A stretch of 61,057 nt of DNA. Origin: Obrimoposthia wandeli (taxonomy: Eukaryota). Of this stretch, positions 1 to 41,559 are shown piece by piece. Location: the NCBI GenBank assembly GCA_977020255.1, contig CDROCS010001093.1, positions 124,001 through 185,057 on the forward strand, in the 5' to 3' direction. Below the pieces are notes generated by a model. It was not told the DNA's origin. It did no database searches and saw only the letters and a program-made list of their open reading frames with translations. The first letter of the stretch is position 1; each line of letters opens with the position of its first letter. Position numbers and translations under genes: made by a program.

Positions 1-149
1 TATGAAAAAACACAGTCATATTTAAAAATTTATTAAAATTTATTCAATTTATTCAATTGACATTTGAATCTTAAAAATAAGCTCTTTAGTCAGTTTTGAT
101 AGGGAACAAGCAGTAGGTATTAAGAGACGGGATATTGTATCATCTAAAT

Positions 150-765: not shown

Positions 766-1075
766 AGCTTATAGTCAAAGCCAACTAGGTTGAGAATTAC
801 CATATTTTGTTGATAAATAATATGGATCCAGCTGGCTTAAAACATCATTTTTTGAAGAAACACAAACGATTTATATCAAAATTAAGAATGGACTGCCATT
901 CATCTAAGGATAATAAATTAATACCAACTTTTAAGAAGAATGCACCTTATGAACTTCATAATGTTCTACCAGACGTTGCAAATTAAATAAAAAAGTTAAA
1001 TAAAGTAAAAGTAAAGAAGCTAGAATATTTTAACGTAAACAAAAGTAAAATATTACTGTAAACAAACGTTAAACT
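743..1075 (+). pseudogene. Remnant of the Polinton core-like protein (homolog of 23183-23560)
   Basis: aaatagcgaatcaagtaataattgaagcttatagtcaaagccaa...ttaccatattttgttg...tatggatcc aligns with the start of 23560. The start codon is ATA and there are stops. Confidence 0.75.
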
Positions 1076-1084
1076 TTTGAAAAA

Positions 1085-1550
1085 TAAGTTGCACCAAAAC
1101 TGAATTGTGTATTTTATATAAAGCACTTCCACAAGTTTTAGACAATGCTTTATTTAAAGAAGTATTTGTAGTTAATTTGGTTTAAGTAACAACCATTACC
1201 GATTTAGAATTTAATATTAATAGTTCAAATAGTGATTATTTATATTTGAATGATACTTTACTTTATGTTCAAGAAAAAGTAAAATAATGCTAAGGAAACA
1301 CCTGTAAATTATTTCTCTAATTATCTAATTGGTTTTAATAAAATTGCAGTTAATGTAATCTTCGTTTGAAATGGAATTAATAAAAAATTTTCTTTGTTAA
1401 GTACAGAAGTGTTAAAACCTAAACTTGATATTTTAGATGCAAAACTGTATATTTGAATAGTTAGAACCGAGCAATCTGTTTTAATGGCACATAATATAGG
1501 ACTGGAAAAAATAATAAAGAACTACTCCAAAACTGCAAAGAATCTATATT
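1085..1550 (+). pseudogene. PY: Major capsid protein remnant with internal deletions
   Basis: gttgcaccaaaactgaattgtgtatt, gatttagaatttaatattaat..., gatactttactttatgttcaa and gagcaatctgttttaatggcacataatatagg match the MCP at 21957-23186. Confidence 0.8.
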
Positions 1551-1554
1551 TCAT

Positions 1555-2850
1555 AATTTGGAGAATTTAGTTGATGCAGATGCAAATAAATATTTATCTA
1601 AAGTTTGAGGTATACTAGACAATTCTCATGATATTATGTACTCAGCCCATATTTAAACATATGATATAAATCATATCCTTTAAGATTCTGAAACAATATG
1701 GCAATGTGTAGTTTTTTGAGGAAATCGACAGCCAATGTTACAATGTTACCTAGGTATCGCTTGTAATATAATCACGATCTCTGACTAATTTTGATTATAT
1801 ACCGCACAAATAACAAGTTTTAATATAACTAAAATTAATCCAATTTACGCCAGTTATGCTCAGCAATTGATGTACGTTTAGATCATACCAAGGGTTGACA
1901 ATTGTCTTCCTAATTCTTTAAATTTTAAAACACAATCTGGTCCAAATTGAAGAAGTTTGTTTAAATAATGTGATTAGAAATCACATATTTGATTTGAATT
2001 TAGATCGACAATAAATATATTTGTTGAAAAGACTCTTTACAAATAATTTATAATACTGAGTTATATTAGAGCCTAAGAATATTAGTACTGACAAAGCTGA
2101 TAAGTAAATATTATCGTACTGGTCGTGCAAAGCCGAAATTTATTCAAAGTATATAAACACCTTGAATTGAACAGGTATGCTTTTTGCCCAATCCCTGAAT
2201 TTGATATCTTTATATTGTAATCAGGATTCAGTTTACATAATGTCAAGTGTTTGTTGAATAAGAGCTCAGATTTAAATCCATGTAAATGTTTATGACATAA
2301 TTTACATCTTATCCTAACCGATACGGCTCTATTATCTAGATTTCAAAGTCGATCTGAATTCGTGAAATTTATTTTGATATTTAAGAAAAAATGTTTACTG
2401 GAGTCACATATTTTATGCTCCTATAAATCACATACGAATGGATTTTTAATAATTTTTTATTATTAAATTATGATAAATTTACAGTGACATCTGTATAATG
2501 TTTGAAAACATTAATACTGAAGTTATCCATGAGTTTAAATTTAGAAATCGTAGTTAATTTAACAGTAAACTTTATTCCATGATATTAGTATATAGTCAAA
2601 GCCCCTGGAGATACGCTGCGCTCATTAATCCTTTGTTTTCATACCAACGCTATATATCTTACAAGGAAATGTACTTTAGTTGTCATAAAAATTAGGAGTT
2701 CACAATTTGTACAAAAATTATGAAATGAATTCTACATATAAAAGTTATTTCATTATCTGCTAGTTTTCAGTATATAAAAAGTTATCGAAAGAAATATTTA
2801 TGTGATAAATTTATAAATGTGTTTAAATATATTAAATTATAGAAACACTA
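1555..2850 (-). pseudogene. POLB: pPolB remnant (copy A)
   Basis: The reverse complement matches about 18200-19540 of copy C (e.g. ggttaggataagatgtaa, ttcagggattgggcaaaa, ttagtcagagatc, aaaggatatgattt). It has many stops and indels. Confidence 0.8.
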
Positions 2851-4039
2851 ACGTGATTATATGAATAAATACCAAATAAAAATGAATTACCTAAAATATT
2901 AAATTGTTATTGGTTTAAAATAAAACTTTACCAAATTCCTATTGGATTTTAAAATTCGCAACACTATTTCAACTAGTGCGCTTAAATTTTTGGATTTAAA
3001 GTATTTCAATTAAACCAAATCATAAAATTTATTTTATAAAAATTTAATACATATAACTTTTTTATTATAAATAAATAGCAGCTAAAACTATATTTTTAAT
3101 ATTGCAATATATTATGTTTATCATATACTAAAATTTCACTGAGTTCTTTTTATGACCGTGCGAAACGTTTCCTTGTTAGTAATAACGTCTATATAAGGTA
3201 AAATTTACTCAAAAACACTTAAAAATTACTTTAAAAACTAATAAAATGAATTAAAAATTACTCCAAATCATAAAGTCTTGAAATTGTGCGTATTGAAATA
3301 GCGCATGCAGGAACAACTGACTCTTTGCTGCAAAGTTTCAGTATGCATCATTTCAATGATTGTTTCAGTATGAACGATTTCGAGACTGCATTTTTAAATT
3401 TCGCCGATTTCACAAGATTTTTATAAGATAGGATTTTTTAAATGTGTTTTTAAGACTTATAAATTTCAAAAATGACCAAAGTCTCCCTTACGGAGCCTCC
3501 TAAGAGAGGAGCCCTGTATGGTCGGGTAGTACCTTTGACAATAAATATTTTAAATATATCATTTGGGAAACGTTTCTTCAGAGTATTTATAAATTTCAGA
3601 GCTTCATTAGCTTTAATAAAAAACTCTGACATTTTTAATTTTTAAATCTAATTTTATACCTCTGAAAATAGTATTTAGATGATTTATATCGGTATTGTGA
3701 ATTCTTGAAATGACGAAATCAAATTTGGATTTTATTAGCATGACAGGGTATTAAAATTCATAGGTTACAGGCATTTTGAGGAAATTCATTGAGTAATTGC
3801 TGGTACCTCTTTATTAATTTTTTTTAAAAAAGATTCTCAATTCCGTATCATCAGAATCTATATTGATTGTGCTATTGAGAAATTGGGTTTTGTTCACATT
3901 CGATATTCTATTCTTCTTTCTATCACCGCTCTTCAAAGTTGTTTTTTGTAAATTGCACATGATTTAATGAGAGTAAACTGAAATTTTTGTTAGTTATAGT
4001 TGACAACTTGAATCTGATTGTATAATATAAAACTATATA

Positions 4040-4362
4040 AGTCAGTGACATCATCAACACTATTATTAAATAATGAATATAAATTATAAAAAGGAACTTA
4101 AGGAAAGTGTTGCAAACAACCAATCAAACATGTCAAGAATATAGACATTGAGAGTATTCAATCTCTAAATATATTAGTGAATATCAACAAGAATGTTAAT
4201 TTGTATAAATTATCTTTGAAAATGGGAATCAATTGCATGTTTGAACCAAAATTGTTTCCAGCACACAGAATTTTAAAGTTTGATCATATATGTGTGATTA
4301 TTCGTGGTATTAAAGATTTTGATTATTATAGTCAAGTTGAGTCTATTGTATATTTTCTGTAA
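4040..4362 (+). pseudogene. TATA-binding-protein-like remnant inside copy A
   Basis: The frame reads DIESIQSLNILVNINKNVNLYKLSLKMGINCMFEPKLFPAHRILKFDHICVIIRGIKD. This resembles TBP repeat 2 (FKIQNIV...FPIRLEGL...SYEPELFPGLIYRM...GAK) with an apparent deletion of the IFxSGK segment. Confidence 0.45.
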
Positions 4363-4779
4363 ATTGTTTATAAACAAAAATATGTTATATGATTTTTTTT
4401 GAAAATGCTTGTTGATTATATAATTCATTATAGAACTGTTAATGACGTTTTAATTAAACGAAAAGTAGAATATACTAAAATGACAGTTTTTTATAAGAAA
4501 TATAAACATGAGAGCGTAAGATTAATTGATTGGAGAAGTATATGTTTCAAGTATGAATGATATACAATTAAATGATATATTATATTAAAATAGTTTACAA
4601 AATTTCAAAAAAACAATGATAATGATGTTAAATACTTTTATTTACATGTTAAAAAGTTTTAGCTAAAAAATTCATAATACATTTTTTATATTTGCATTTA
4701 TTTGTAAGTTAAAAAACTTATTAAAAAAATCTTAATAAAAATTTTGTTTAAATTTATTTGTAAGTATAAAAAAATTCTC

Positions 4780-5170
4780 TTCTTCCTCACTGGTGTCACT
4801 GGTGGTATATGTATCCTCACTGCTACCACTGAAATTGAAGGATATGTAACTTGAGCAGAGTTCTGTTGGGTAGTAAAGTCTTCTCCATCTTCTACCGATC
4901 ACTGACTAATCAGGTCGACACATAGATATATCTGTACCCCTTATCCTTCTGTTGCTGGTGGTGATGCTGCTGTTGCTTCTATTGGTGTCGTCGTAACTAA
5001 AGGGTCAAAGGGCCCACCATCGAACTTTGATTAAGTAAGTCAATGTACTGCGATTGTGGTGGCGTTTGTCGCTGCACTGGAGATAGATCCTCATACAGCT
5101 CAACATCCATCTCTTCGTCTAGGTCTCCGTACAACTGCTCTTCGAGCTATGCGCCCATATCAACATTGTG
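4780..5170 (-). pseudogene. Remnant of Polinton gene 1 (SIM-motif protein), copy A
   Basis: The reverse complement gacctagacgaagagatgg...ctccagtgcagcgacaaacgccaccacaatcgcagtacattgactta matches 13797-13890. Confidence 0.8.
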
Positions 5171-6399
5171 GAAATGAGGTATTACAAATATTAATCAGGG
5201 AAAATAATGTTGAAAGGCCTCTGCATATAAGACATATAAGACAAATAATTTTTTCAAAAAGCATAGTAGTTAATATGTTTTTTTACAATATTTTCCCTGC
5301 CCACGGAGTCTGTTTAAACAAATTACATTTGTCTGAAAGAGAATTATATAAATAAATTTGAAATAATTATCATAAATGAATTATTAGTAACTTTGTTGTA
5401 ACAAAATCAAGTTGTTTTTTGTAATTGAATGAATGTCTAAAGCCTCGGTAGAGTTAATGAATGGAACGAGACAAATGATAATCTTGGTACAATGTAGCTA
5501 GCATCGCTGCTGTTTCGTTTTCGTAGCACCAATAAAAAAGATAACGTTCGCTTTTGATATACCAACAACAATGGGCAGCTAAAACAAAGATAACGAAATA
5601 GGGAAAGTGTTTAAGAGAGTTAGATAAATAATGGTAATCCATTTTCTGTTTTACGTTTCTCAGAATGATTTTATTACCTCAATTATTATCGTGTCATTAT
5701 TGTAAATTACTTTGTAATTATAAAAAGTTTTTAATATTTTTGGTTTCACATTGAAACATATTTATTTCAGATATTCATAAAATCGATTTCAAGAAAAATG
5801 TTAGAAAGGAAAAATTATCGAAAATTACATTTTCCTAGTTAGTAAAATGATAGAAAACCCAAATAAAAAAAAGAGACCAATATATCAAAAAAGATAATTT
5901 TATCAAAAACAATTTGAGTTACTCAATTTTTCTAGTAGAACGTTTATTTTTTCGATTATTCTCTTCCCTTAACCCTTATCAGCAAATGTGTCGACATGCA
6001 CCATACTAAGTATTATTACTTTTATTCTAGACTGCAAAACAGGCTGATTTTTTTAATTATAAATAAAATCTATTAAAAATCTTTATGAAATTTTCAAAAT
6101 GAAAATAAGGTTACATAAATTGTATTCTTATCCTAACAAATATCGATATTTTGTCAATATTCAATGTATCATTCGTTACAGGGTGTGTATAGAGTGAACT
6201 TTCAAACATGTGTGCTTAAAATATTTTTCTACTACATACAAACAGTCATAGTCAAAAACTTCAGAAATTACTATGAATTTTCAAATAAATTATTTGAATA
6301 ATACGCTCTTATTGGATTATGAAAAAGGGTTTGTCTCATGTTGAAGTATATCAGGAGACATATTTTAATTATTTTTCATTATTTTTTACTAATTAAAAA

Positions 6400-6720
6400 A
6401 TGTTTTTTTACAACGTAGACTTGGACGACGATATCGAGGAGGATTTGTATGGAGACCTATCTTCAATACAATGACGAACGCCACCACTATCACAGTACAT
6501 TGACAAACTTAGTCAAGACTCGACAGTGGTGAGCCAACCTCTTGCTACGACGAGACAAGAAAAAAGACAGCAGCATGAAGAGCAGTACCAAGAGGAAAGA
6601 TATCAAATTGTATTGACTTGATTAGTCAAAAACCGATAGACCTAAGGGAACCTCTCGCCACTTCGATTCCAAAAGTAGCAGCAGCTGCAAGAGGAAAGAA
6701 GCAATGCGACGAGAAGGTGA
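6400..6720 (+). pseudogene. Gene 1 exon-1 remnant (copy B)
   Basis: ATG at 6400 reads MFFYNVDLDDDIEEDLYGDLSSIQ*, then SQYIDKLSQDS and CIDLISQ, homologous to 13776 onward. Confidence 0.8.
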
Positions 6721-8575
6721 GAAAACTAAAACTTTACATAAAGCTACAGATTTTTTGAGATAAATTTGTAACTGAGAATGGAAGAAATTCCTATGAAAAA
6801 ATTGTTAATTGTAGCGAGTGGTACATTTCTTTACTTATATCTCATCAACTCTCACTTTCCATTGTTAGCATAAAAACAGTGATAACATTTGCTTCCTGAA
6901 GCGAGTTGATTATCTTCAAAATGAATTAATTACTGAGCAGAGAGAGCGTGTCAGTAAATATACCCATTTTCTAAATGAATTGCAATATCATGGAATATAT
7001 TTCCCTGTTAAATTAAATGCGCTATATAGATTTGAAAACATGAATAACTTGAATATTATTGTATTCAAATATAATACCGATATCTCAGTTAATATACCAA
7101 AATAATAATAAAAAAACCTTTTGTAAGCATAATTTACAGGAGCAAAAATGAGGGGACTCCGGTCAACTTAATTTTTCTCTAATATAATAATAAATTCCAC
7201 AATTCCAAATTCCAAATCTTTATCAACTTTTTAATCTTGATAACGGAGCCTTACTGATTAGGATAAGGTTTAATTAGTGCAATAGATGTTTGTATGGATT
7301 CAGATCCTAGCTCCCTTACAACAAACACTTGACATTATGTATACTGAATCCTGATGGCAATAGCTATATAGCATGCCAAAGGAAAAAGATTAAAAATCAG
7401 GGTGTATGCAGATTTTGAATCAATTTTAACATGATACGACCAATATGAGAGTATTAACCTACCGGCATCGGCCGGACTATTATTCTTTGGCCCCAGTATC
7501 ATGAATATTCCGGTTCAAATTGCATTTTAGATTTTAGATTAAAATTTGAAGAATTAGGAACTTCAATTGTCAAACCGTGGTATGTTTTTAATGCTCATCA
7601 ACCAATAATCATGACTAGCATAAACTGGGTTAATTTTAATTTTAGTAGAACTAGTTATTTATGTAGTACTTAGTCTAGGTTAGTTAGAAGTCACGATAAT
7701 ATTACGGGGCGATATTTGAGAGTGGAATACAACCTTTGTAACTTTGGCTGTTGACTCCCTTAAACACCATGTATTTTTCATCGGTTGATAATCTCAAAGG
7801 ATATTATTTGCATCATATACTTAAATACGCGTTGGGTACTATCGTGGGAATTGTCATATATACCTCACACTTCAGATAAATATTTACCTTTAACTAAACA
7901 ACTTTATACAATTTAAAAAATAATAGTATCTTTGGTAACAATGTAGAGGACTTGCTGAAACGTATTTGTCTACGGTTTTGGAATGATGTGTGTAAGCTAA
8001 TAACATATTCTAGCAAGTACAACTTCAAACATAGTTTTATAATAGCAGATGACTTGGTAGCAGTATTATTAGAAAATTAGAGCGTTTGTCTCGATCAACC
8101 GAGTTTTATAAGTCAAACAATCTTAGTTATTTAAAAACTCAGAATGTATGAGCTCCATTATATTGAATTAGAGAAATATCGTAACGAATTCAATCGTTAG
8201 ATCAAAATTGTAACTGGGGACACTGATTTTTTTTTTTAAGAATGTAGGAAAGTTAGTTTACAAAATCAATTATTACCTGTAATGTTTAGAGATAACCTAC
8301 TAGATACCCCTAAATATATCGTTAATCATCCTATACACTCTATGACTTTAGAGGATTTTATCAGGAAAATTAAAAATGAAAGCTAGGATCAGGTTTCGTA
8401 TTAGGATTGCAAATTTAATACATCCTTAAATGCTACTGTTTAGATACATCTAAAAATACATGTTCAATGAGAGCAAAGAATGTGGGGAAAACAATCTTAC
8501 ACATGAGGCCTACCGGATAGCTTATGATACTGAATGCATTGAAAGTTCCAAGCAAACTAGATTTATTTTAAGGTA
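6720..8575 (+). pseudogene. POLB: pPolB remnant with several internal deletions (copy B)
   Basis: Matches 18200-19500 and 20560-21200 of copy C, including gagagcgtgtcagtaaatatacccc and ggggacactgat (GDTD). Confidence 0.85.
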
Positions 8576-8599
8576 ATTCACCATCTAGTTGACTTTGGC

Positions 8600-9640
8600 T
8601 ATAAGCTTTAATTATTGCCGTATTCGCCATTTCGTTTTTTAATGTATTGTTAAACTTGTCTTGGCTCCGTATGTGAAATATATTAGTTGTCCGGATTCAT
8701 CTCTAATATTTACTTCAATGTGGTTTATAGATAAGAGAGAAACTGGAAGATTCATGGGTTGATCTATACCAATACCGATAACTTTACCTATTTTAGTTTT
8801 ACTTTTGGGTTATTCATATTGTTATCAAAAGTGAGACTAGCAGTTCTCCTACAAGCGTTGATTCTATTAAACTAGTATAAATATATAACTGATTAAAAGG
8901 ATTTAAAAGATTTGATAGATTGTCTTTCAAAGGTATTTTCGATTAAACCAATTTTAACGAGTTTATTATCACAGGAAAACCGTTGTATATTGTTCTTTAC
9001 TGTAAATGTCAACTTACCATTTTTAATGTTACACATTTATTCAAATATTCGATGAATTCCTTCATTATACATATTCATAAATCAAATTCATTATATATTT
9101 TATAATATTTTGAAAGTGTTTTCAGTTCCAGTACATCTTTAGTTCTAGCTTCAGCTAACATAAGTGTTCTACTTTACCAAGAACATTTTAAACAAATTTA
9201 TATGATTCAATATCTCATTTCTTATTAGCTAATGCATGTTTGCTGAAAAAATTGAATTTAAAAGCCTTTTTTTAATTCTAATGTCAACTGAAAAAGTTTT
9301 AATCGATTTTATTTAATACTTCTTTTTTATATTTTCAAATAATACTTTCACATTTTTATTTTCAAATTTGAAATAGAATTTCCTTTACTATCAAACTTGA
9401 TCAACAATATCATTTGTTTCATGTACTTCTTTTCTTTTGTAAAAGGAATATGTGAGTTTTTTCTGATAGTAATTGGAGAACAATAAAATTTAATGTCTGT
9501 TAAAACCGTTTCACATTCTCGTTGGAGATTTATAGGATTTTTCCAATAAATAATAAAGCTACTAGCATCATTATCCGTTTAGATGGATAAATATGGAATA
9601 TTTCAATACGGTTTAATGGATATTATGCAGATGTCCATGA
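8600..9640 (-). pseudogene. PX: Penton remnant that retains the N-terminus missing from copy C
   Basis: The minus strand reads MDI...TDNDASSFIIYWKNPINLQRECETVLTDIKFYCSPITIRKNSHIPFTK... and ends ...AKTSLTIH. It has multiple stops. Confidence 0.75.
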
Positions 9641-11834: not shown

Positions 11835-12333
11835 ATGATCAGTCTTCGGTTTCTAAGGAAGAAAGTGACCACGAGATGAAGTTATCAACGATTTTAACGT
11901 TGTGGCTAAGTAATATTTGAAAACACATTTTCTATTTATTTGAAAATTATGTAAAGTAAATATAAAATCAGAAAATTTAGGGCCAATTTTGAAATTGAAC
12001 TCGGTTAATTATTAGACGTTATAATTCTGTGGAAATATTTTAACGCCTAATAAAAATTAGTACAATAAATATCGATTGATAATAGTCTTTTGTATGTCGG
12101 TGTTTGGTTGAGATTTTAGTAAATATATTATTACATTGAATAAAAACTACTAAAGAAATTACCTTTATCTATGTTGATGGTAGAAAAGTACAACATCATG
12201 CGAAGATCAAAACCCTCATTATACAAAACGTTCTTAATTTTTTGTTTAGGTTAATGGGTCTTGTTCAGATAAGTAAGGTTTAGCAAACCTAATCAGTAGG
12301 TGGATGTGTCCGGTCTAATCCACACACCCCCTC

Positions 12334-12415
12334 CCCCCTTGTCCTTTAAAACCGTGCATGTGTGTTGAGTGAAATTTCACTCCAAACACATGCACGGTTT
12401 TAAAAAACAAGGGGG
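12334..12415. repeat. 82-bp near-perfect loopless palindrome in the left terminal region
   Basis: Centred on GAGTGAAA|TTTCACTC (12374/12375). 37 of 41 positions pair, checked manually. Confidence 0.95.
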
Positions 12416-12460
12416 CGTCCCCCCTAACATTTTTTCGCGCCTGTTATAGGTCTGATATAG

Positions 12461-12647
12461 GTCACAGACTAGCTTGGCGATGTGCGGATGTCTCGCTCTC
12501 ATATATGTCACAGACTAGCTTGGGCGATGTGCGGATGTCTCGCTCTCATATATGTCACAGACTAGTTTAGGTGATGGGCGGATGTCTCGCTCTCATATAT
12601 GTTACAGACTAGCTTGTGTGATGGGCGGATGTCTCGCTCTCGTGTAT
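12461..12647 (+). repeat. Four tandem 46-47-bp repeats in the terminal region
   Basis: Unit GTCACAGACTAGCTTGG(G)CGATGTGCGGATGTCTCGCTCTCATATAT starts at 12461, 12507, 12554 and 12601. Confidence 0.95.
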
Positions 12648-12726
12648 ATCACTAACTACCTCGGGTGATGGGTGAAAGTCGATGGGTGATGGGTAAATGT
12701 CGGTGGGCGTTAGGCTGGTGGTGTTT

Positions 12727-13477
12727 CACCACCAACACTACACCCCACAACATCACACCACACCACACTTAACACAACACCACACCACACCAAACCACAC
12801 CACACNNNNNNNNNNNNNNNNNNNNNNNNNNNNNNNNNNNNNNNNNNNNNNNNNNNNNNNNNNNNNNNNNNNNNNNNNNNNNNNNNNNNNNNNNNNNNNN
12901 NNNNNNNNNNNNNNNNNNNNNNNNNNNNNNNNNNNNNNNNNNNNNNNNNNNNNNNNNNNNNNNNNNNNNNNNNNNNNNNNNNNNNNNNNNNNNNNNNNNN
13001 NNNNNNNNNNNNNNNNNNNNNNNNNNNNNNNNNNNNNNNNNNNNNNNNNNNNNNNNNNNNNNNNNNNNNNNNNNNNNNNNNNNNNNNNNNNNNNNNNNNN
13101 NNNNNNNNNNNNNNNNNNNNNNNNNNNNNNNNNNNNNNNNNNNNNNNNNNNNNNNNNNNNNNNNNNNNNNNNNNNNNNNNNNNNNNNNNNNNNNNNNNNN
13201 NNNNNNNNNNNNNNNNNNNNNNNNNNNNNNNNNNNNNNNNNNNNNNNNNNNNNNNNNNNNNNNNNNNNNNNNNNNNNNACCACATCACACCACACCACAT
13301 CACACCATACCACANNNNNNNNNNNNNNNNNNNNNNNNNNNNNNNNNNNNNNNNNNNNNNNNNNNNNNNNNNNNNNNNNNNNNNNNNNNNNNNNNNNNNN
13401 NNNNNNNNNNNNNNNNNNNNNNNNNNNNNNNNNNNNNNNNNNNNNNNNNNNNNNNNNNNNNNNNNNNNNNNNNNNNN
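12727..13477 (+). repeat. (CACAC/ACACC)n pentamer-like microsatellite, mostly N-masked or gapped
   Basis: CACCACAC-type repeats flank the N runs at 12806-13278 and 13315-13477. Confidence 0.8.
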
Positions 13478-13481
13478 CTCC

Positions 13482-13770
13482 GCCCGCCCCGTAGGGGCGG
13501 GCTCCATTCTCGCGAAAATAACTACAAAAACATGCGCTACAGTATCACTTTACCTCTCACAACTACAAATGTAAACGACCCGTGTCATACCCAAGACCTT
13601 AACATACACCACCCTCACCTTCGGGGCGGGCTTCATTCTTGATCTACAGTCACGAAAAAACATTACAAAAAATAAATTATTTGAATAAGAGGCTCTCATT
13701 GGACAATAAAAGAGGGTTAGTAAGATGTTTGTGTATATAAAGACACCTCCGTTCATTATTTTTCATAAAT
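13482..13770 (+). promoter_or_regulatory. Putative RNA polymerase II promoter of gene 1
   Basis: GGGGCGGGCT(C/T)CATTCT occurs twice (13494, 13623). ATTGG (reverse CCAAT) is at 13698, TATATAAAG at 13734 and an Inr-like TTCAT about 30 nt later. The block 13672-13702 is conserved in copy B (about 6285-6316). Confidence 0.6.
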
Positions 13771-13775: not shown

Positions 13776-15590
13776 ATGCCATTCTACAACAACGTTGACC
13801 TAGACGAAGAGACGGTGGTTCAACTCTATGGGGATCTCTCTCCAGTGCAGCAGCAAACGCCACCACCGTCGCAATACATTGACTTAGATAGTCAAGAGTC
13901 ATCGGTGGTGAGCGAAGGAGAAGCAGCAGCAAGAGCGAACCTGTTACAAGAAGAAGCCTCATTGGCCAGCTCAACTCCAAGAGAAGAACCAATGGACGTG
14001 AGAGGTGGGGTACAGAGATCCCAATATATTGACCTGACAAGTCAGGATTCGATAGAGAATTGGGAAGACTGTACTCCCAGACAAAACACAAAACCCAATC
14101 GTCCGGCAACTTCAGCAGTAGCAGCAGGGAGATCCAATCTCTTCCAGAATTTTGAGGCGGCAATCAAATGCCCCTGGAAATTGATCCCGCTGTCTCAGCC
14201 GGAGAAAGTCCTCGCACCAGACTCAGACGAGGAGCTGTTCACCGATGATGTACCTTCAGATGGGGAGGAGGACTTGACTCTATTCACTGACGAATGGATA
14301 CAGCCAAGTATCGGAGCCCCAGGAGCCAACGAATCGATGGTAGCAGAATTGGACGAGGACGAGTGGCACCTGTTCACCGACGATTGGGATGGGCTCACTC
14401 CCTCTGCTACTCCGAAAGCAGATAATACAATGCCTGAACCATTCAAAAGGCCAAAATCTCCTGTTAGGAGAATAAAACCGACGAATGAGGTTAGACATAA
14501 TTTATTTTAAATGTTTTTTAATTTCATTTTCAGAAACTTCAACTGGATTTGGCACCGTCAGTGACCATGACGGAGAGGCTGATTGAACCGCAATACTTGG
14601 CGAGTCAATGCAGCCAGGAGCTGCCAAGGAGTCAGCTCCGATACCTAGCGTCTCCAGATAATTTTAAGGTAATTTATTTAGATATTAAATTTAATAATTC
14701 ACATAGATGGAGAACATCCACGAAGAGGCGACGCCTATTCAACCGGTGGATAGGAAGCAAACGGTAGTTAAGAAACCGCAACGCCATCGGGTCAAAACCC
14801 TCACTCGGAAGAAAGCCAAGTTGGTGAAAAAGGCTAACCTGCCCATCATTGAGGTAAATTATTTATATGTTTAAATTTTATTAATATTCTGCAGGAACCC
14901 GTCCAGATATTTGAGGAGACTTGGGGAGAAATTACTCCTTTCTCGCGGAAACGGACGAAGAAGGCAGAGGTGAAGAAGACGAGGCGCTCGAGAAAATGTA
15001 AAACCTCAATTGGTCATTATTCTGAGGCGATGATTGGCCAGCAGGAGATTCTCCCATCTCCAGTGGACGATGGTCCAATTTTATACGAGAGGATCTCAGT
15101 CTCACCGATCGAGATAAGTCCGCAATCAAGTCAACGACGCCTGCATGAGTCTGCTTCTCCTCATCCAACAACCAGCCAGAACTTAAAGAGGGCCTGGGAT
15201 GAAGCTGGATTGGACAAATTCCTGGCGGAACAGGATTCACCGGCAATGCTTCCAGATTCGTGAGGGCAACAGGATGCCGTCTCACGCCAGCTTCAGCGTG
15301 AGAAGGAGGAGAAAAAGAAGAAAGCTCTGCGGAAGAGGAAGAGGACTTCTACGTCGGAACCATCAACATCGACTGCACATCCTTCCAAAAAGTTGCGGCA
15401 ATTATTGCCAAAACCTGAGGGAAGGACAATTGCTACAAAGCAACCGGTGAAACCGAAAAAGAAACCGGGCCGGCCAAAGAAGGAACCAGTACCGCTTTCT
15501 CCTATAATACTTAGTCGCAGGGATTTCGATCCGGATGATCCCAATGATGACTTCGTAAAAATGTTTAAAAATATAATTTATAAAAATTAG
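13776..15590 (+). pseudogene. Polinton gene 1: 4-exon, about 563-aa low-complexity protein (SIM-like YIDL motifs, acidic FTDD/W motifs, basic NLS, AT-hook-like KKPGRPKK); one premature TGA
   Basis: join(13776..14489,14534..14668,14707..14853,14895..15590). Three GT-AG phase-0 introns of 44, 38 and 41 nt keep one frame. There is an in-frame TGA at 15261-15263. Introns 1 and 2 are conserved in copy D. Confidence 0.85.
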
Positions 15591-16926: not shown

Positions 16927-19900
16927 ATGCCTATGGTAAGAATCTATATTTATTATTTCCTTATTAATATTTATTATTTCAGATTACGTGTAACCTATTC
17001 CCTGCATATTGTGGTGCTTCGGCTCCGCATGGAGGAGAGACCTGCATGGAGACAATGTCTGCATACTATCGGACAAAGTCTCGCGGGCTTCACTTCTTTG
17101 TCTGCCCATTCTGCAGAACAATAGAGGAGAAGGAGTTTCGAGACTTCTTCGGTGAACATCGAGCTCATCTATCGTGTTTCACGGCCAACAACAAGAAGAG
17201 GGATATCATGCAATTGGTGCGCGATTCGCAGGCCGCTCCTGCTCCAATTCCAGTTGCAGTCGATCAACCCTTTTACGGTCCTGCGATTGATCTCCAGGCT
17301 CCTGATTCTGACCCATCCACTCAAATGTCTAACAATGAGTGGATGAATGACATATCCCAGTCAGATTTCGAGATAGAGCAGTGGAGCAATAACTCATGGT
17401 TGGAGACCATCGAGGAATCCGATTTCGTCGAGATGTCGGACGACAGCTGGATGGATTTCGTCAATGAAGAGGACTTCATTCCAGCTCAACTTGGATTGCC
17501 TTCATTAGGTATTTTTTATTATTATTTTTAAATTATATATTTTATTTTTTATTATATATATATATATATATATATTTATTTTTTATTCAGGAAGTACCAT
17601 GATACAGCCGTCATCCGATAGGACAGCTATGCCTCCCCCATCTCGAGTGCCTATATCGATTTTAGCACGCATTAGAGGTAATTTTTAAAAATATATTTAT
17701 TTTTTATTATATTTATTTCAGCAGCACTAACCTCTACAACAGCCGCTTCTTCATCGGCAAGGTCAGATTCAAATTCAGCCTCTACATCTGCGGCAGCATC
17801 TATTCCAGCAGCATCGTCTACACCAGCTGCGATTGCCTCAACATCGGCAACATGTCCAATAGCAGCACCTTCAATCTCAGCTGCGTTTGTGTCAACTGCT
17901 AATATAAATAGTTGTCTTCCCGTTCAATTAGGGGGAGGTTTGTCAGCGACAAACGGAAGAAAGAGGCGAGGCCAATTTCTTAATAAGGTCCCACCAAAAA
18001 AACGTAGAGAAAACGGTGCTACTATAGAGTATCACCTAAATAATAAATATGTTATAGTTAAGGTGCCATTAGGAAATGAAATTTTATTAAACGTAGGTGT
18101 AGATTCAAATATTGAAAATCTTTTAAAATCAGAAGTGACTAAATTAGGACAGGCTAAGGTTCAATTTTGTGCAACAGTGCAGTTTAAAAATGTCAATGAG
18201 GAAACTAAAACTTGGGTAATTTCACATAAAGCAACTGTTTTCTATGATAATTTTGTAACTGAAATTGGAAGAAACCTAGATGAAAAAATTGCTAATTATA
18301 GCGAGTTAAGTAGTGAATGGAATCTAGTTAGAATTCACGATGTTAGCTTTGTTCTAACAAAGTTCACTGACATGATATATCTTTCGGGGAGTTCATACAT
18401 TCCTTCACCTAGATCTCTTCAACTTTCACGTTCCATTGTTAACATACAAAACAGTGATAACATTTGCTTTCTGTATAGCGTGTTGGCCATCCTCAAAAGG
18501 GATGTAATTACTGAACATAGAGAGCGTGTCAGTAAATATACCCCTTTTTTAAATGAATTGCAGTATCATGGAATAGATTTTCCTGTTAAATTAACTGCGA
18601 TATCAAGATTTGAACATCTTAATAACTTGAGTATTAATGTATTCAAATATAATACTGATATCCCAGTTAATGTAACAGATGAAAAAATATTTAAAAATCC
18701 TTTTGTAGATGTAATTTATAGGAGCAAAAATGAGGGGACTCAGGTCAACTTAATTTTTCTCGAACAGAATAATAAATTCCATTATGCTGCAATTCCCAGT
18801 TTAGATCGTCTTCTAAATTTAGATAATGGAGCCTTACCGGTTAGGATAAGGTGTAAGTGGTGTCATAGATGTTTGCATGGGTTCCGATCCGAGCTCTTTT
18901 ACAGCAAACATCTGACATTATGTTCACTGAATCCTAATGACAATACGTTATACACCATGCCTAAGGATAAGGATTTAAAATTCAGGGATTGGGCAAAATG
19001 CATACCCGTGGAATTCAGGGTGTATGCAGATTTTTAGTCAATTTTAGCATTGCACGACCAGTATGAGAGTATTCTCCTACCGGCTTCGGCAGGACTACTA
19101 TTCTTAGGCCCCAATATTACCCAGTATCATAAATTTTCCGGTCCAAATTGTATTTTAGATTTTATGTTAAAATTAGAGGAATTAGGAACAACAATTGTCA
19201 AACCGTGGTATGATCTCAATGCTCATCAAGCAATGATCATGACAGGCATAGACTGGGTTAATTTTAATTCTTGTAGATTATGTTATTTGTGTGGAACCCA
19301 GTCTAAGTTAGTCAGAGATCACGATCATGTTACGGGGCGATACTTGGGAGCGGCGTGCAACCTTTGTAACCTTGGCCGTCGTCTCCCTAAAAAACCACGC
19401 ATTCCCATCGTGTTTCATAACCTCAAAGGATATGATTTGCATCATATACTTAAATACGCGTTGGGTACATTAAGCTCTTGGGAAATTTCATGTATACCTC
19501 AAACTTCAGAGAAATATTTATCTTTAACTGCATATACTGAATTCTGCAGTTTAAGATTCATAGATTCTCTGCAGTTTTTGAGCGGGTCTTTAAAAAATTT
19601 AACGGCATCTTTAAATGCATGGCCAATCACACAGTCAGTGTTCCCAGCTTCGGTTAACGATAAGGGGATTTTTCCGTATAAATTTGCGAAAACTTTTGCA
19701 GATTTAGAAAATACAACTGAAATCCCACCCATAACTGAATTTGAAAGTGTAAGTCTTCAAGACTATAATGAGGCCCGTACATTTTGGGTGAATAATTGTC
19801 GAAATCTTTTCGAATATATGCTTTATTATATGAAGTTAGACATTTATCTTTTAGCTGATGTTTTTGAGTCCTTTCGTGTAAAGTCTTTAGCAGAAGATGG

Positions 19901-21313
19901 GCTAGATCCCATGCATTTTTTAGTTTATCTGGTCTTTCATGGGCAACAGCTATAAAAACTCTTAAAATTAATATCGAGTTACTGCAAGATCCCGCGATGT
20001 ATCAAATGTATGATTATGGTATACGCGGTGGAATGACTTTTGTCAACAAACATCATGTTGTCAAAAATCAATCCACGGAGATTCTGTACATCGACATTAA
20101 TAATTTGTATGGGTGGACGCTTACTCAACCTCTACCTCATGCCAACTTTAAGTGGGTTTATGATGTGGATCAGTTGAATAAGTTGATGACAGATTTGGCT
20201 TCTGTTGATACAGTTTCATCCGACGTCGGCTATTTGGTTGAGGTGGACATAAAAATCCCTCCCAATGTGCATGATAAATTAGATGATCTTCCAGTAGCGC
20301 CTGTTCATCAATGCCCACCTAATTCAAAGGTTAAGAAATTATTGTTAACCCATGAAGACAAGTTGAATTATGTTGTGCAATGGCGGCTTCTTCAATTCTA
20401 CTTAAAGTTGGGAGCGAAAGTTACTCGAATTCATCGTGCTATAAGCTTCAGTCAAAACTTTGTGTTTAAAGACTATATTGAGAAGAATTCAAGAAAACGT
20501 AATTTGGCCACTAGCAAATTCGATCGGGATTTTTACAAGTTAAAAAGTAATAGCCTCTTTGGAAAAACTGTAGAGGACTTGCGGAAACGTATTTGTCTAC
20601 GGTTTTGCAATGATGAGCGTAAACTAATAACATATACTAGCAAGTACAACTTCAAGCGTAGTTTTACAATTGCAGATGACTTAGTAGCAGTGTTATTAGG
20701 AAAACAGAGTATTTGTCTCGATCGACCGAGTTATATAGGTCAAACGATTTTAGACATTTCTAAACTCAGAATGTATGAGCTTCAATACATAGAATTTGAG
20801 AAATACTGACAAGAATTTAATTGTGAGATCAAAATCGCGGCAGGGGACACTGACCCTTTCTTTTTAGAATGTAGGAATGTTAGTTTAAATAATCAATTAT
20901 TACCGGCAATGTTTAGGGACAACTTACTAGATACCCATAAATATCCCACTAACCATCATCTACACTCTATGAGTTTAAAGGACATTATCGGGAAATTTAA
21001 GGATGAAAGCGAGGGACAGGTTTCGTATGATGATTGTATTTTCCTACGCCCTAAATGCTACAGTTTACATGCATATAATAATACATGTTCAATGAGAGCA
21101 AAGGGTGTGGGAAGAAACAATCTTACACATGAGGCCTACCGGAAAGTTTATGATACTGGGTGTATTGAAAGCGTTGAGCAAACTAGATTTATTTCAAGAG
21201 CCCATAAACTGTATTCCCATAAATCAACCAAAATCGCTTTGAGTAGTAATGACAACAAGCGCTTTTGGGTAGAAAAGAAGGCTAGCCTGGCTTATGGACA
21301 CTTCAGAATTTAA
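16927..21313 (+). pseudogene. POLB: Protein-primed family B DNA polymerase, 4 exons, about 1400 aa when repaired
   Basis: join(16927..16935,16983..17508,17591..17677,17722..21313). Motifs: NSDNICFLYS/KFHYA, YADF(E)S, an endonuclease-VII-like CYLC..RDHDH..G...GAACNLCN, FHNLKGYD, FIDS, KGIFPY, YIDINNLYG, KLKSNSLFGK, GDTD, LRPKCY and RAKGV. Lesions: TAG 19035, a 1-nt deletion in the T-run near 19916-19921, and TGA 20807. Confidence 0.97.
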
Positions 21314-21574: not shown

Positions 21575-21955
21575 CTAATCGTTTTGCAACGATAACCATA
21601 AAATACATAAATGTCCACAGTTTCTCATCGCAGGATCCTGATATTGTATCTTGTTGTAAAATACTCTTCTTCGTCCTTTTTGAATAGTTGAAACAAGTTT
21701 GTGTGGATAGTACATAGCAAGTGGATCAAATACATGTATTGTCCACTTTCTAACATAAATAGCTATCCAATGTTCTCCTGGTAAATTCGAAGTATGAGTA
21801 ATGATAATGTAACCTCCAGATTGAAAAAATGGAATCATATCAATAGGATAAACTCCATTGAATTTATCACCCAGGACCTTCTCTGCCGATTCTTTTACTT
21901 GTTTTGAACTAAATAAAAATTAATAAATATAAATTTAAAGTATGTCTTACTCCAT
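21575..21955 (-). CDS. PRO: Adenain-like (C5) maturation cysteine protease, 2 exons, 112 aa, apparently intact
   Basis: complement(join(21575..21908,21951..21955)). ATG GA|gtaaga...tttag|T TCA AAA gives MDSKQVKESAEKVLGDKFNGVYPIDM..., with catalytic GEHW, VFDP, QYQD and NCGH. Confidence 0.88.
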
Positions 21956-21956
21956 T

Positions 21957-23186
21957 CTATAATATGACAGTTCTGTTTTTATTGATTTGTATTTCCGAAT
22001 CAAATACTCCGTAAATAAGCACCGTAGTAGGATTTGTTAACGCTGCATTGAACTTAATTTCTAGTCGTAAATTTCCATCCTTTGGTAATTGGCATTGGTT
22101 TATATCAAAGTCTGGTGCCAAAACAAATGTGAAGAACGGACAGCTGTTTTTAAAGTCAGTAAAAGAAATACCATTGTTTATATTTTTATCTAGTTAGCCC
22201 AAATTCCGAATAATAGATTGCGTATAAGCCAAAGCATAAGCGTCACCTTCGAAATCTGTTTTATATGTTTCGCGATAATCAGTATTTCTTGAAATTGTCA
22301 CTGAACCTACACTAAGATTGTCAAATTGAGTTGCATCTGTCGTATAATTTCCTAGAAACTTTGCAGTTTTTTGAAAATAAATTAAAATGAATTTCGGTAA
22401 TCTTACATCACCAAATATTTGATCCTTATTAAGAGCTTGTATACCCGTACCTAAAGAATAAGATATAAGTTTAGTTTCTCTAATAGGATAACAAGCATTG
22501 TTTTTTTCTATTCCTATATTATGTGCCATTAAAACTGATTGCTCGGTTTTAACTCTTCGAACATACAATTTTGCATCCAAAATATCAAGTCTAGGTGTTA
22601 GAATGTCCGTGCTTATCAAAGAAAAATTCCATTTATTACGTTTCAAACGAAGATGTACATTAACACCGGGAATTAAATATTTCGGTTGTTCAACGAAATT
22701 CAATCTCAAAGACCCACACATTTCGTAAGCTTTAGAACCTGCAATCCATTCTTTGCGAGTTGCAACAGTTTTATCATAACCAATGGTTGCCAAATTAGTA
22801 TTTTGAGTATCAGTACTATAATTCAAAAGACTTTCAATCAAAGCTTTATGAGCATAGGAAGAATTTCCACCTTCAATTTTGACATTATTAAGAGTAACAA
22901 TGGCATCACTAAATAAAGAATTAAAGATATAATTTACAGGTGTTACATCGGCATTTTCATCTAAATTAGTACCATCCCGATTTAATACTTTTATTTGAAC
23001 ATAAAGCAAAGTATCATTCAAATCTAAATACTCGCTATTGGAACCATTAATATTAAATTCTAAATCGGTTAAAGTGGTTCCTGAAACTGAGTTAACTAGG
23101 AATATTTATTCAAAGGAAGCATTATCTACAACTACTTGTGGAAGCGGTTTATCAAAAATACACAATTCAGTTTTGGCGCAACTCAT
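21957..23186 (-). pseudogene. PY: Major capsid protein (double jelly-roll, hexon-like), 409 codons with two in-frame TAA
   Basis: MSCAKTELCIFDKP...SFE*IF...EYLDLNDTLLY...PVNYIFNSLFSD...YAHKALIESLLNYS...NLG*LDK...FTFVLAPD...GNLRLEIKF...IYGVFDSEIQINKNRTVIL*. Stops at 23106-23108 and 22194-22196. Confidence 0.93.
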
Positions 23187-23560
23187 TTTGCAAATATTGT
23201 TCCTTCAACATTCTTACGTTTGTTTATATTAATTTTTAGCTTCTTTTTACTTTTAAATCCACTACCTCCTTGGCTTTTATTTGATTTACGTTTTCTAATC
23301 AAATTAGCAACTTCAGGTAAAACATTATCAAGTTCATCAAGCGCATGGTTCTTAAAAGTTGGTATTAGTTTGTTGTCCTTAGATGAAAGGTAATCCTTTC
23401 CTAATTTTGATATAAATTGCCCGAGTCTCTTTAAAAGAGGAAAGGCAAATCTACCTAATGTTCTAAGCCAGCCAGATCCGTATTGTTTACCAACAAAATA
23501 TGGTAATTCTCCATCTTGTTGGCTTTGACTATAAGCTTCAATTATTGCTGGATTCGCCAT
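23183..23560 (-). CDS. Basic virion core-like protein with QxGxG motifs (conserved polinton ORF upstream of MCP)
   Basis: 125-aa intact ORF: PYFVGKQYGSGWLRTLGRFAFPLLK...SQGGSGFKSKKK. Homologous remnants are in copies A and B. Confidence 0.8.
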   Translation of the reverse strand: MANPAIIEAYSQSQQDGELPYFVGKQYGSGWLRTLGRFAFPLLKRLGQFISKLGKDYLSSKDNKLIPTFKNHALDELDNVLPEVANLIRKRKSNKSQGGSGFKSKKKLKININKRKNVEGTIFAK

Positions 23561-24500
23561 TTTGTTTTCTTAAATGTATTGTTAAACTTGTCTTGGCCCC
23601 GTACGTGAAATCTATTAGTTGTCCGGAATCATCTCTAATATTTACTTCAATATTGTTTATAGAAAGAGAGAAACTGGAAGATACATTGGTTGATCTATAC
23701 ACATACCGACAGCATCCCCATCTCTAGTTTCATTTTTAGATATCCATATTGTTCTCAAAAGTGGAACTCTCTGTCCTCCTACAAGCGTTGGTTCTATTAA
23801 ATTAGTATAAATATATAAATGATCACCAGCATTTAAAAAAGTTTTGCCTTATTTTTAGCTTTTATGGTTTTTATTGTATGGGTTTCAAAGGTATTTCTGT
23901 TTAAACCAAGGTTTTTAGCGAGTTTATCATCAAATGAATCTCGTTTTATATTGCTCTTTACTGTAAACGTTAATTTACCATTTAATGTTTCACATTTATC
24001 TAAATATTCACTACATTCCTTCTGTATTAATTTACAGAAATTCACTTCACTATCTATTTTATAATCTTTTGAAAACCTTTTCTGTTCCACTACAGTCTTT
24101 GGTCTCGTTTCAAGTAACAACACTTTTGCTACTCTACCAGGAACATTTCTAACCGATTTAGATGAGACAATATCCCGTTTATTACGAGCTACTGTTTGTT
24201 CACTATCAAAACTGAATTGAAGAGCTTCTTTTTTAGATTCAAAATTAATTTTAATAACTTGAAGAAATTTTAATCGATTTTTAAATCTGACTTTGTTATT
24301 TTCAAATATTACTTTCACTTCTTTATCTATACAATTGTAATAGAATTATCCTTTACTATCAAACCCGATCACAACTTTAGTTGTTATTTCATTATCAACT
24401 TCTTTTGTAAACGAGATATGTGAGTTTTTTTTGATAGTAATTGGAGAATAATAAAAAGAAAATTCTGTTAAAGCCGCTTCCCATTCTCCTTGGAGATTTT
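23538..24500 (-). pseudogene. PX: Minor capsid protein (penton) lacking its N-terminal ~35 aa; one stop and two frameshifts
   Basis: Starts NLQGEWEAALTEF (penton LxGxWEVAL motif). TAA at 24346-24348, frameshifts near 23835 and 23663, ending LTIHLRKQNGESSNN* at 23538. Confidence 0.85.
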
Positions 24501-24942
24501 TATTATTTATATTATTTTGTTTAAATAAAGATTGAACTTGCTTATTATAAAATTCTTTTCCTAAATCAGTTTGCACATTTTGTGGAATGTCCTCTTTTAA
24601 TATTTCTTTAATGGCTTCAAGCATAGCTATTGAAGACTTTGCTTTAACTGGAATTGCACGAGCAAACCTGCTAAATACATCAATACATGTTAAAATATAT
24701 CGATATCCCTTATTAATGGAAGAATATGGAATCATCTCCATCAAATCCATTTGCCATAAATTATTAGGACCGCTGGTTTTGTAAGCTCTAGTTGGAAACC
24801 TTCTTCTCATTGGCTTGTTCAGACTGTAGGCTAACTGGTTGCTCAGCCATTTCTGCGTTTTCTTGTATTTTTGTTTTGTTCTTTTTGCTAATTTTGAAAC
24901 TCCGGTGCAGCCAATTGGATCTTTTGGGTTGAACCATATCTT
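24500..24942 (-). pseudogene. INT: Retroviral-like (rve) integrase, N-terminal half only; start codon lost
   Basis: KIWFNPKDPIG...KWLSNQLAYSLNKPMRRRFP...LWQMDL...LTCIDVFSRFA...QTDLGKEFYN. The third catalytic residue (VERFN) and the C-terminus are deleted. Copy E shows ATG GAG at the position where C has a 5-nt deletion. Confidence 0.93.
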
Positions 24943-25029
24943 CTACAACAATTTGAATAAAAAGAAAATTTAAGATTAGGTAAAGAAGGGCTAGCAACCA
25001 TATCTTTAGCTGATTTTAGAAATAATTGT

Positions 25030-25359
25030 TTATGAACGTGTCGCAGCTATAATACTACTGATAATTGAAGCAACAACTATAATAACAGCTCCTATGAAAC
25101 CACCATTCTGTTTAAGAATAATATTTCGTTTCCTTTTTTTACTTTTTACATTAGCAATATCTAGAAGAGTTTTTCTATATTTCTTTAATAAATTTTTCCG
25201 ATTTCCAACTTTTACTCGACCCAAAACTATATTATACAAAACTTCCTATAAATCATCTACAACAAAGGATGGAAATGCTTTAAGAATAATCATTCTCTTA
25301 TTAGAAGAGGCTTTGACTAAAACTTTAAAATAGGGTATGCTTCTTTGTATTTTCTTCAT
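25030..25359 (-). pseudogene. Small conserved polinton protein with C-terminal QNGGF plus hydrophobic tail (candidate virion/membrane-active protein); one TAG
   Basis: MKKIQRSIPYFKVLVKASSNKRMIILKAFPSFVVDDL*EVLYNIVLGRV...LLKKYRKTLLDIAN...IILKQNGGFIGAVIIVVASIISSIIAATRS. Stop at 25246-25248. Confidence 0.75.
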
Positions 25360-25390
25360 TTTAATAAAAAAGGTGTTATTTAAATATTGT

Positions 25391-25531
25391 TTATATTCGA
25401 AGCCATTTAAGTTTTTTTTTATTTTTAACTACAGATTTGATTAATTTTTTCACTTCTTTTTTCTTAATGATTCTTTTTTTTGATTTCTTAGATTTTACTT
25501 TACGTTTTACTATCAACTTTGTAAAAGCCAT
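25391..25531 (-). CDS. 46-aa extremely Lys-rich protein (protamine/H1-like candidate core protein)
   Basis: MAFTKLIVKRKVKSKKSKKRIIKKKEVKKLIKSVVKNKKKLKWLRI has 19 K and 3 R. It sits between the ATPase stop (25539) and the next ATG (25359), below the ORF-track size cutoff. Confidence 0.65.
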   Translation of the reverse strand: MAFTKLIVKRKVKSKKSKKRIIKKKEVKKLIKSVVKNKKKLKWLRI

Positions 25532-25538
25532 TGCGAAT

Positions 25539-26120
25539 TTATTTTTTATAATTGTTCTCTATTTGTTTATAAACAGTTACTCCCTTAGAATTAAATATGT
25601 CTGTTAAAACACGTAAATCATCTGGGCAAGCTTGTGTAAAGTCAATAAATATATACCCATTGTGCTTGTTTAGCAGCATCGTGGAATGAATCAACTAGAA
25701 AGTTCTTATTTTGAGGAAATGCCTGTCTGACCACAAAATCAACAACTGTTTGATCTCTAGGATTTTTAAATAAAACTAAGTAATGTACATTAAGATTTCT
25801 TGTTCTATGGTGACCTCCTTGGTGAAACAGATTTTGAGTGATAAATATAACTGTTACTTCACGATGTCTTGCAATCTTTGTAAATAAATTATTAAAGTCC
25901 GATTCCTTGTTAGCCTCCTCATACAAATCATCAATTATTATTACATCTTATTTTTTCAATCTTTCACACCAATTTGCATCAAATCCTTCAATAAATTGTA
26001 TTCCCTTCAACTTGTAAACTTATGTTTTGGTTAACCCGCTTTCCCCTCCTCCACCATGAAAGTATTTGAATTAGAAACATAGCGTATTGCATCAAGAATT
26101 TTATTAAAAATCACATTATA
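25539..26120 (-). pseudogene. ATP: A32/FtsK-like DNA packaging ATPase, 5'-truncated
   Basis: Walker B VIIIDDLY, LFTKIARH, IFITQNLF, LNVHYLVLFKNPRD and, after a frameshift, GYIFIDFTQACPDDLRVLTDIF. Walker A was not found. There is a TAA just before Walker B. Confidence 0.9.
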
Positions 26121-41250: not shown

Positions 41251-41559
41251 TACATGTATACAGGGGATTTTATGAACAAGTAATGCCGGTAAGATATTTC
41301 CGGTTTCTGATTACATAACTGTAATATTAGATATATCAGTCTATAACATGTAGACAAAATTACAGTTTTGAATTTATAACTTTTAAATTATAACCTATAT
41401 GTTTAACAAGAGTCATATTTTAAGTTATAACGTTGCTTCATATTTAAGGGTAGTTAAAGGCAAGAGTTAAAATTAACTTTTAGGCAAAATATTTGGAAAT
41501 TCTTGCAAGACCAAGGAACTGGTTTGGTGCTTCTGCTGAGATACGTTAAACATCCTTGG

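Follow-up and report, generated by a model that had tools for sequence, protein, structure and literature searches.

The Polinton element and its first gene

The window (the whole stretch of DNA that was analysed, 61,057 nt from Obrimoposthia wandeli) contains an element that, judged by its gene content and order, is a Polinton/Maverick: PolB is followed by protease, probable capsid, integrase and ATPase genes on the opposite strand. Both components of the Polinton hallmark, PolB and a retroviral-type integrase, were found above the Pfam cut-off (DNA_pol_B_2 and rve). The matches of the ATPase (Pox_A32) and of the protease (Peptidase_C48) fell below it, and the capsid ORFs were placed by their position, without a Pfam match. 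The features of the element and of its first gene, gene 1, are the following.

12290..13659, no strand assigned: left terminal inverted repeat region, matching both ends of the complete copies in G000:C671 and C1904; outer edge approximate; contains 47-nt repeats, a CACCA-type simple repeat (partly N) and GC boxes at 13480, 13495 and 13624
13734..13741, plus strand: TATA box, 42 nt before the start codon
13776..14489, plus strand: gene 1 exon 1, 238 codons; acidic, predicted disordered; holds all SIM-like and acidic-Trp motifs
14534..14668, plus strand: gene 1 predicted exon 2, 45 codons; GT-AG, phase 0
14707..14853, plus strand: gene 1 predicted exon 3, 49 codons; K/R clusters
14895..15590, plus strand: gene 1 predicted exon 4; basic, NLS-like clusters; in-frame stop at 15261-15263 in the window copy
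16968..21313, plus strand: protein-primed DNA polymerase B (PolB) region, Pfam DNA_pol_B_2 5.6e-12 and 3.2e-16; broken by stops and a frame change
21575..26059, minus strand: protease, probable capsid genes, integrase and packaging ATPase, Pfam rve 7.2e-13, Peptidase_C48 0.064, Pox_A32 0.023

The window element is truncated near 26059, where its match to the complete copies ends, and its right terminal repeat is missing. A complete copy (G000:C671) is roughly 16 kb long and is flanked by terminal inverted repeats of ~1.2 kb. The left repeat in the window holds three 47-nt repeats and ~1 kb of the CACCA-type simple repeat (12476-12663 and 12735-13477). Nested, decayed Polinton fragments of older families lie around the element (window 1-9600, 40260-42200 and 53700-54700), and each of three 30-kb regions fetched from elsewhere in the genome contained 2-3 Polinton elements, often head to head. 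We also noted that the probable first PolB exon (window 16968-17531, plus strand) contains a CxxC as well as several acidic Trp repeats (NNEW, EQW, NSW, DDSW), one after another, of an activation-like or adaptor-like appearance.

The gene 1 family is very large. A first look gave 8,686 candidates, which are not to be equated with copy numbers, and all of the 40 that were scored were 96-100% identical. For the comparisons below, we used three sets, each collected with a query of its own: 29 young loci, 11 mid loci (of 14, once duplicates were removed) and 47 old loci (of 57). Loci identical to the query were excluded, and the sets are the best-scoring of thousands rather than groups defined by a tree.

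Gene 1 starts 117 nt inward of the left terminal repeat, upstream of PolB and on the PolB strand. TATAWAW was found at -60 to -25 in 28/28 young, 6/6 mid and 17/30 old copies with an aligned start, as against 0, 0 and 1 copies in a control window, so that the box is retained in 51 of the 64 aligned copies overall (control, 1/64). The preliminary description of this DNA had proposed a Polinton context with gene 1 transcribed first. The Polinton context is supported, as are the first position after the terminal repeat and the conserved TATA box; that gene 1 is transcribed early is a prediction.

We predicted that gene 1 consists of 4 exons (563 codons) separated by 3 phase-0 GT-AG introns of 44, 38 and 41 nt. 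Its end, earlier placed at 15490, is corrected to 15590 by this split model. Among the mapped mid-family copies, the donor GT and the acceptor AG were present in 9/10 and 8/10 for intron 1, and in 5/6 and 5/6 for intron 3. Intron 2 had GT in 8/8 copies but AG in only 2/8 at the mapped place, so its acceptor was not confirmed in these copies. The lengths of the predicted introns vary in this family while the exons remain alignable. No joint fell at a predicted intron among the 15 joints listed out of 118, and the introns were evenly covered in the contigs (4 runs, one sample), a coverage that is not evidence on expression or splicing. In the middle-aged (mid) family (L040, L056, L062 and L066), the start of exon 4 was found duplicated as an extra exon of ~80 codons, which is absent from the young family.

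The in-frame stop at 15261-15263 is private to the window copy (0/29 sister copies), and ~99% of the contig depth shows a different base at 15261 in 4/4 runs of one sample. Eleven of the 29 sister copies, some of them with indels, have no stop in the aligned codons. As a consequence of this stop, the basic motif KKPGRPKK of the window copy lies beyond it and is cut off.

Exon 1 is predicted to be disordered (AlphaFold2 pTM 0.15; mean pLDDT 51, mostly under 60; 4/238 residues at pLDDT of at least 70), and the gene as a whole is charge-patterned, with an acidic half and a basic C-terminal half. Exon 1 had 0 matches among 2,314 longer-protein candidates, and its 24-sequence profile had 0 matches among 1.84 billion representatives. 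For gene 1 we obtained no usable Atlas match, 0 PDB sequences and no Pfam family above the cut-off (exon 4 was searched against Pfam only). Hence the searches of Pfam, PDB sequences and the 1.84 billion representatives returned no known structural or host-derived protein, the identity that the preliminary description had held to be incompatible with its own proposal. Pfam and a motif scan likewise revealed no RING or SP-RING, no CxxC (Cys content 0.7%) and no other catalytic or folded domain.

In complete elements, the ATPase and the right repeat enclose a further gene, TBP-like and with two exons (Pfam TBP 4.8e-11; L071:6549-7121, minus strand, in G000:C671; also L137-L149), which is missing from the truncated window element. 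The Atlas placed it with TBP clusters at 0.95, though with low recognition, and all 150 matches listed, from 30,903 candidates, were 96-100% identical. Such a gene in a Polinton is not new in itself, as non-animal datasets already include a Polinton-related element with a gene so labelled (excerpt of PMC8502044). Its presence indicates that the family invests in its own transcription control, which favours a regulatory role of gene 1. Beside the right terminal repeat of the same complete copy, two adjacent ORFs (G000:C671, L071:7288-7704 and 7820-8302, plus strand) look like mutual paralogues and have no Pfam family above the cut-off.

Repeated motifs of gene 1 and their conservation

The short motifs of gene 1 are located as follows.

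13791..13811, plus strand: NVDLDEE, N-terminal partial SIM-like motif; 5/5 columns with the same residue in young vs old, 3 silent changes
13869..13901, plus strand: SIM-like repeat 1, SQYIDLDSQES, YIDL at 13875
14019..14051, plus strand: SIM-like repeat 2, SQYIDLTSQDS, YIDL at 14025; best fit to the type-b SIM and to E1A EVIDLT
14181..14249, plus strand: LIPLSQPE...DSDEELFTDD block (first acidic aromatic motif); residues 136-155, 17/19 columns the same in young vs old
14277..14297, plus strand: acidic-Trp repeat a (TLFTDEW), degenerate in the window (young) family
14367..14402, plus strand: acidic-Trp repeat b (HLFTDDWDGLTP; F-x-x-x-W-x-x-L spacing); 17/19 columns the same in young vs old, pN/pS 0.09
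15459..15482, plus strand: KKPGRPKK, AT-hook-like or NLS-like basic motif without a central RGR

A six-frame scan recovered every motif that had been reported before: both SQYIDL repeats, NVDLDEE, FTD[DE] at 14238, 14283 and 14373, and KKPGRPKK, together with the decayed copies YIDL (5047, minus strand), CVDLISQ (4922, minus strand) and CIDLISQ (6609, plus strand). These motifs are kept in intact as well as in older copies. Among 20,000 shuffles of the gene 1 protein, 4 produced two SIM-type strings by chance and 11 (again of 20,000) the GRP motif; these figures overstate the surprise, because the patterns were picked post hoc and the two SIM copies stem from one duplication. A very loose scan allowing 4 mismatches gave 127 matches vs 34-46 in shuffles and was too noisy, and its column counts were left unused.

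Repeats 1 and 2 of the window share 9/11 residues and differ by 6 silent base changes. Among the 47 old loci (at most 2 mismatches allowed), three repeats were counted in 10, two in 18, one in 11 and none in 8, where some loci lack the 5' end and a few of the relaxed matches are likely to be chance. The type-b core, a hydrophobic residue followed by I/V-D-L-T, is present as YIDLT in repeat 2. At the last core position, where type-b SIMs have T, repeat 1 has D in the young family (28/29 copies) and L or I in the older families. The core I and D, which the type-b SIM requires, are kept across the families. The flanking SQ[DE]S is phosphorylatable, lies within the predicted-disordered region and is only mildly acidic unless phosphorylated; gene 1 has ten SQ dipeptides in all, and four of them flank the two YIDL cores. 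Known type-b examples are VIDLT of PIAS and VDLT of RNF4 (excerpt of PMC3901395), and SIMs are described as loose motifs with phosphorylatable flanks as part of the pattern (excerpt of PMC12751080). YIDL(T/L/I)SQxS thus resembles the type-b SIM in sequence and nearly equals the EVIDLT of E1A.

The pattern of codon changes indicates that gene 1 evolved under purifying selection, its between-family pN/pS being 0.33-0.35 (one comparison per column). In each of the three comparisons between families, the YIDL cores kept 8/8 columns and had 1-2 silent changes, and the linker between them gave pN/pS values of 0.64-4.6. When pooled per copy, a measure that counts shared changes repeatedly, pN/pS for the cores was 0.22 in the mid and 0.18 in the old set, as against 0.85 and 1.13 for the linker and 0.49-0.60 for the gene. 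In young vs old, the three SIM-like blocks kept 24/26 columns and the whole gene 330/427 (77%). The significance, calculated by hand, was p ~0.12 for the cores alone (not significant) and ~0.045 for the three SIM-like blocks; independent changes are few because the families are few. The YIDL windows ranked 4th and 15th of 235 in exon 1 for conservation. We consider these sequence statistics for the cores and blocks suggestive, not strong; the silent divergence between the two window repeats and the third repeat of older families carry more weight.

Two further blocks, 136-155 and 191-209, are conserved as well as the SIM-like ones. In the older families, the module F-x-[DE]-[DE]-W-D-G-[LV]-T-P occurs in 1-3 copies and its conservation equals that of the SIM-like repeat. 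The spacing F-x-x-x-W-x-x-L is the p53-like MDM2-binding pattern. A search of the genome for SWIB domains, with 8/8 candidates scored, gave two genes resembling BAF60 and UAF30 and no MDM2; these labels come from reading the sequence, and exon-split genes can escape such a search. As no MDM2 was found in the genome, we dropped the reading of an MDM2 decoy and prefer that of a generic activation motif.

The preliminary description had also read KKPGRPKK as an AT-hook. The part of this claim that stands is the GRP core flanked by basic residues. Against it, the central RGR is absent, with no Arg before G either in the window or in 22/22 aligned old copies, and a Pfam search gave no AT_hook match and no family at E up to 10. 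AT-hook structures rely on that central RGR (excerpt of PMC11354804). The GRP motif is nonetheless an old one: in the old copies (25 examined, 22 aligned), G, R and P are kept in 11, 12 and 15 of 22, respectively, and the exact GRP in 4/22. The motif is equally likely to be an NLS that binds nucleic acids weakly or a true AT-hook.

Candidate SUMO contacts, proposed role and rival readings

We modelled repeat 2 in complex with a flatworm-type SUMO, a stand-in that is 82% identical to the host SUMO exon. The predicted complex scored 0.42, and the best of 3 controls 0.14. The runs agreed in at least 80% of the contacts, with a partner pLDDT of 51 and no interface given for the beta2-alpha1 groove of SUMO, where type-b SIMs bind. 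The mark for a complex was reached by 51/78 solved and 2/108 mismatched pairs in a calibration that covers no peptides; with a score of 0.60 or under, it was reached by just 5/78 solved pairs and by every one of the 4 passing mismatches. Since SUMO-SIM complexes have already been solved, the model of repeat 2 may pass by its likeness to them. The modelling therefore lends weak support to a contact of repeat 2 with SUMO. The host SUMO exon itself was found in the genome and is closest to the SUMOs of Macrostomum and schistosomes, from which the host is probably a flatworm. Separately, we noted arrays of ubiquitin-like units with ~270 nt spacing and open frames of ~82-90 codons (G000:C2592, C2050, C1456, C4682, C1351 and C58). 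As regards the earlier proposal of a SUMO-binding effector, the motifs, their conservation, the disorder and a weak predicted SUMO contact speak for it, and the binding itself is a candidate property.

As the most likely reading, we propose that gene 1 may encode an E1A-like early motif hub, a nuclear protein that would dock on SUMO or UBC9 and recruit coactivators to turn on the element; we put the chances of this composite reading at even. The host-polymerase TATA promoter beside the terminal repeat would fire first once the element is exposed. The basic clusters would direct the protein into the nucleus and give it a weak hold on DNA or RNA. Around the element DNA, the tandem SIM-like motifs could dock on UBC9 or on chromatin or repair proteins that carry SUMO; phosphorylation of the flanking Ser/Thr would probably strengthen this docking. 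Finally, the acidic F-x-x-x-W-D-G-[LV] repeats are likely to recruit coactivators and, with the TBP-like protein, might activate the polymerase and particle genes. Taking the parts singly, we think it fairly probable that the repeats bind SUMO or UBC9, lean slightly towards an early transcriptional regulator, and are doubtful that gene 1 specifically defeats SUMO-dependent silencing.

The strongest rival keeps the SUMO or UBC9 binding and gives it another use: the protein would shield or organise free linear element DNA against the DNA-damage response, or would itself be SUMOylated and localised by it, with no role in transcription or silencing. SQ is the ATM/ATR site, and the ten SQ dipeptides, with four around the YIDL cores, fit such a role. 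There are also viral parallels, as the SIM of ICP0 is phospho-activated and SIMC1-SMC5/6 targets viral episomes (excerpt of PMC12751080), and adenovirus E4-ORF3 SUMOylates repair proteins (excerpt of PMC5030357). However, the conserved acidic-aromatic repeats, the TATA promoter and the TBP-like partner gene point to transcription, and no reliable SUMO-acceptor consensus was found inside an exon, the sole one spanning a predicted exon junction. We hold this rival to be unlikely.

Alternatively, the repeats could be Y/W-x-x-L motifs for another partner, that is, ATG8-family proteins (LIR), an adaptin sorting signal or an ITIM-like S-x-Y-x-x-L. Both YIDL and DDWDGL fit the LIR core, and YIDL and the acid-preceded W-D-G-[LV] fit the patterns of this group. 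Moreover, SIM and LIR have a common binding mode (excerpt of PMC12751080). The middle I and D, which are free in such motifs, are nevertheless unchanged across the families (8/8 columns), which argues against the LIR, adaptin and ITIM readings. The acidic and Ser residues follow YIDL rather than precede it, and the protein has several basic NLS-like clusters, so we regard a partner of this kind as quite improbable. Still less probable is that internal duplication in a gene under loose constraint produced the repeats as a by-product, and that they have no specific partner. The few independent lineages, the weak statistics of the cores alone and the varying repeat number would agree with it, but the repeats and families differ by silent changes only while the linkers drift. 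The charge patterning, disorder and basic C-terminal half would suit a structural protein, acidic in one half and basic in the other, that forms the virion core or condenses DNA. This reading is the least probable of all: gene 1 shares its strand with the polymerase and stands away from the protease/capsid/ATPase block, it found no counterpart among PDB sequences, in Pfam or among 1.84 billion representatives, and old copies preserve its only protease-site-like string, VRGG (residues 75-78), poorly.

Returning to the E1A-like hub, a possible benefit to the element can be considered. Planarian Polintons are silenced through SMEDWI-2 (PIWI) and H3K9me3, are prime PIWI targets and wake during differentiation (PMC8532177, which has 0 occurrences of SUMO and so does not link it to planarian transposon silencing); since they are silenced, a counter-measure would pay. 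In flies and worms, SUMO is required for piRNA-guided silencing (excerpts of 10.1101/533091 and PMC8131101). In its boldest form, the proposal would be of an animal Polinton with its own switch, an E1A-like first gene whose amplified poly-SUMO-binding decoy titrates SUMO-dependent piRNA/heterochromatin silencing, joined to acidic activation repeats and a private TBP; this module would have helped the family to reach thousands of copies. This we consider more doubtful than the counter-silencing role by itself, and many viral SIMs serve in localisation or self-SUMOylation rather than in anti-silencing (excerpt of PMC12751080). If true, an animal DNA transposon would encode an anti-silencing factor that works through SUMO, and this factor would functionally foreshadow adenovirus E1A or run parallel to it. 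The known proteins with which transposons counter silencing are few, and the excerpted literature names mostly plant examples. A short, repeated and selected motif in a very abundant element offers a way to ask whether an animal transposon attacks the SUMO step, and bears on whether the E1A strategy recurs among the Polinton relatives of adenoviruses.

Comparison with known systems

The preliminary description knew of no Polinton gene with this architecture, and our literature search likewise gave none with SIM repeats among titles and the starts of abstracts. The preliminary description had overlooked that the window copy is broken, that the acidic-Trp repeat is conserved as well as the SIM-like one, and that the closest precedent, by analogy, is adenovirus E1A. 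E1A is a disordered hub and the first protein to be transcribed; its EVIDLT motif has UBC9, not SUMO, as its binding partner, changes PML bodies and, in yeast, suppresses polySUMOylation (excerpts of PMC5030357 and PMC5930299). Both are the first gene at the left end, spliced (as predicted for gene 1), disordered and hubs of short motifs, and EVIDLT is close to YIDLT. They differ in that no sequence homology was found, that the motif is present 2-3 times in gene 1 and once in E1A, and that the predicted 563-codon model of gene 1 contains no LxCxE, CR1, PxDLS or CxxC zinc finger.

The 'Oncoid' of adintoviruses and Polintons (Starrett et al. 2021, excerpt of PMC8502044) is also a short-motif protein encoded upstream of PolB, in an E1A-like gene slot. 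It is defined by LxCxE/CR1 and paired CxxC, all absent from gene 1, and the same excerpt describes no SIM-like repeats in it. With RNF4, PIAS and the viral STUbL ICP0, gene 1 shares clustered type-b-like SIM cores in a disordered N-terminus, but its cores are 50 residues apart and it has no RING or SP-RING, so the protein cannot be a ligase on its own. HMGA-type AT-hooks have the same lysine-flanked GRP core (excerpt of PMC11354804), whereas gene 1 has a single motif, no central RGR and no Pfam match. By the defining features of these groups, as far as they can be read from sequence, gene 1 is not an Oncoid, a STUbL or a canonical AT-hook protein.

The VANC proteins of Arabidopsis VANDAL transposons resemble the gene 1 product in that a DNA transposon encodes them in an accessory gene for which a role against silencing has been proposed. 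VANCs recognise specific DNA and act against DNA methylation in plants (excerpt of PMC5735166), while gene 1 has no matching domain and carries only the weak basic GRP motif.
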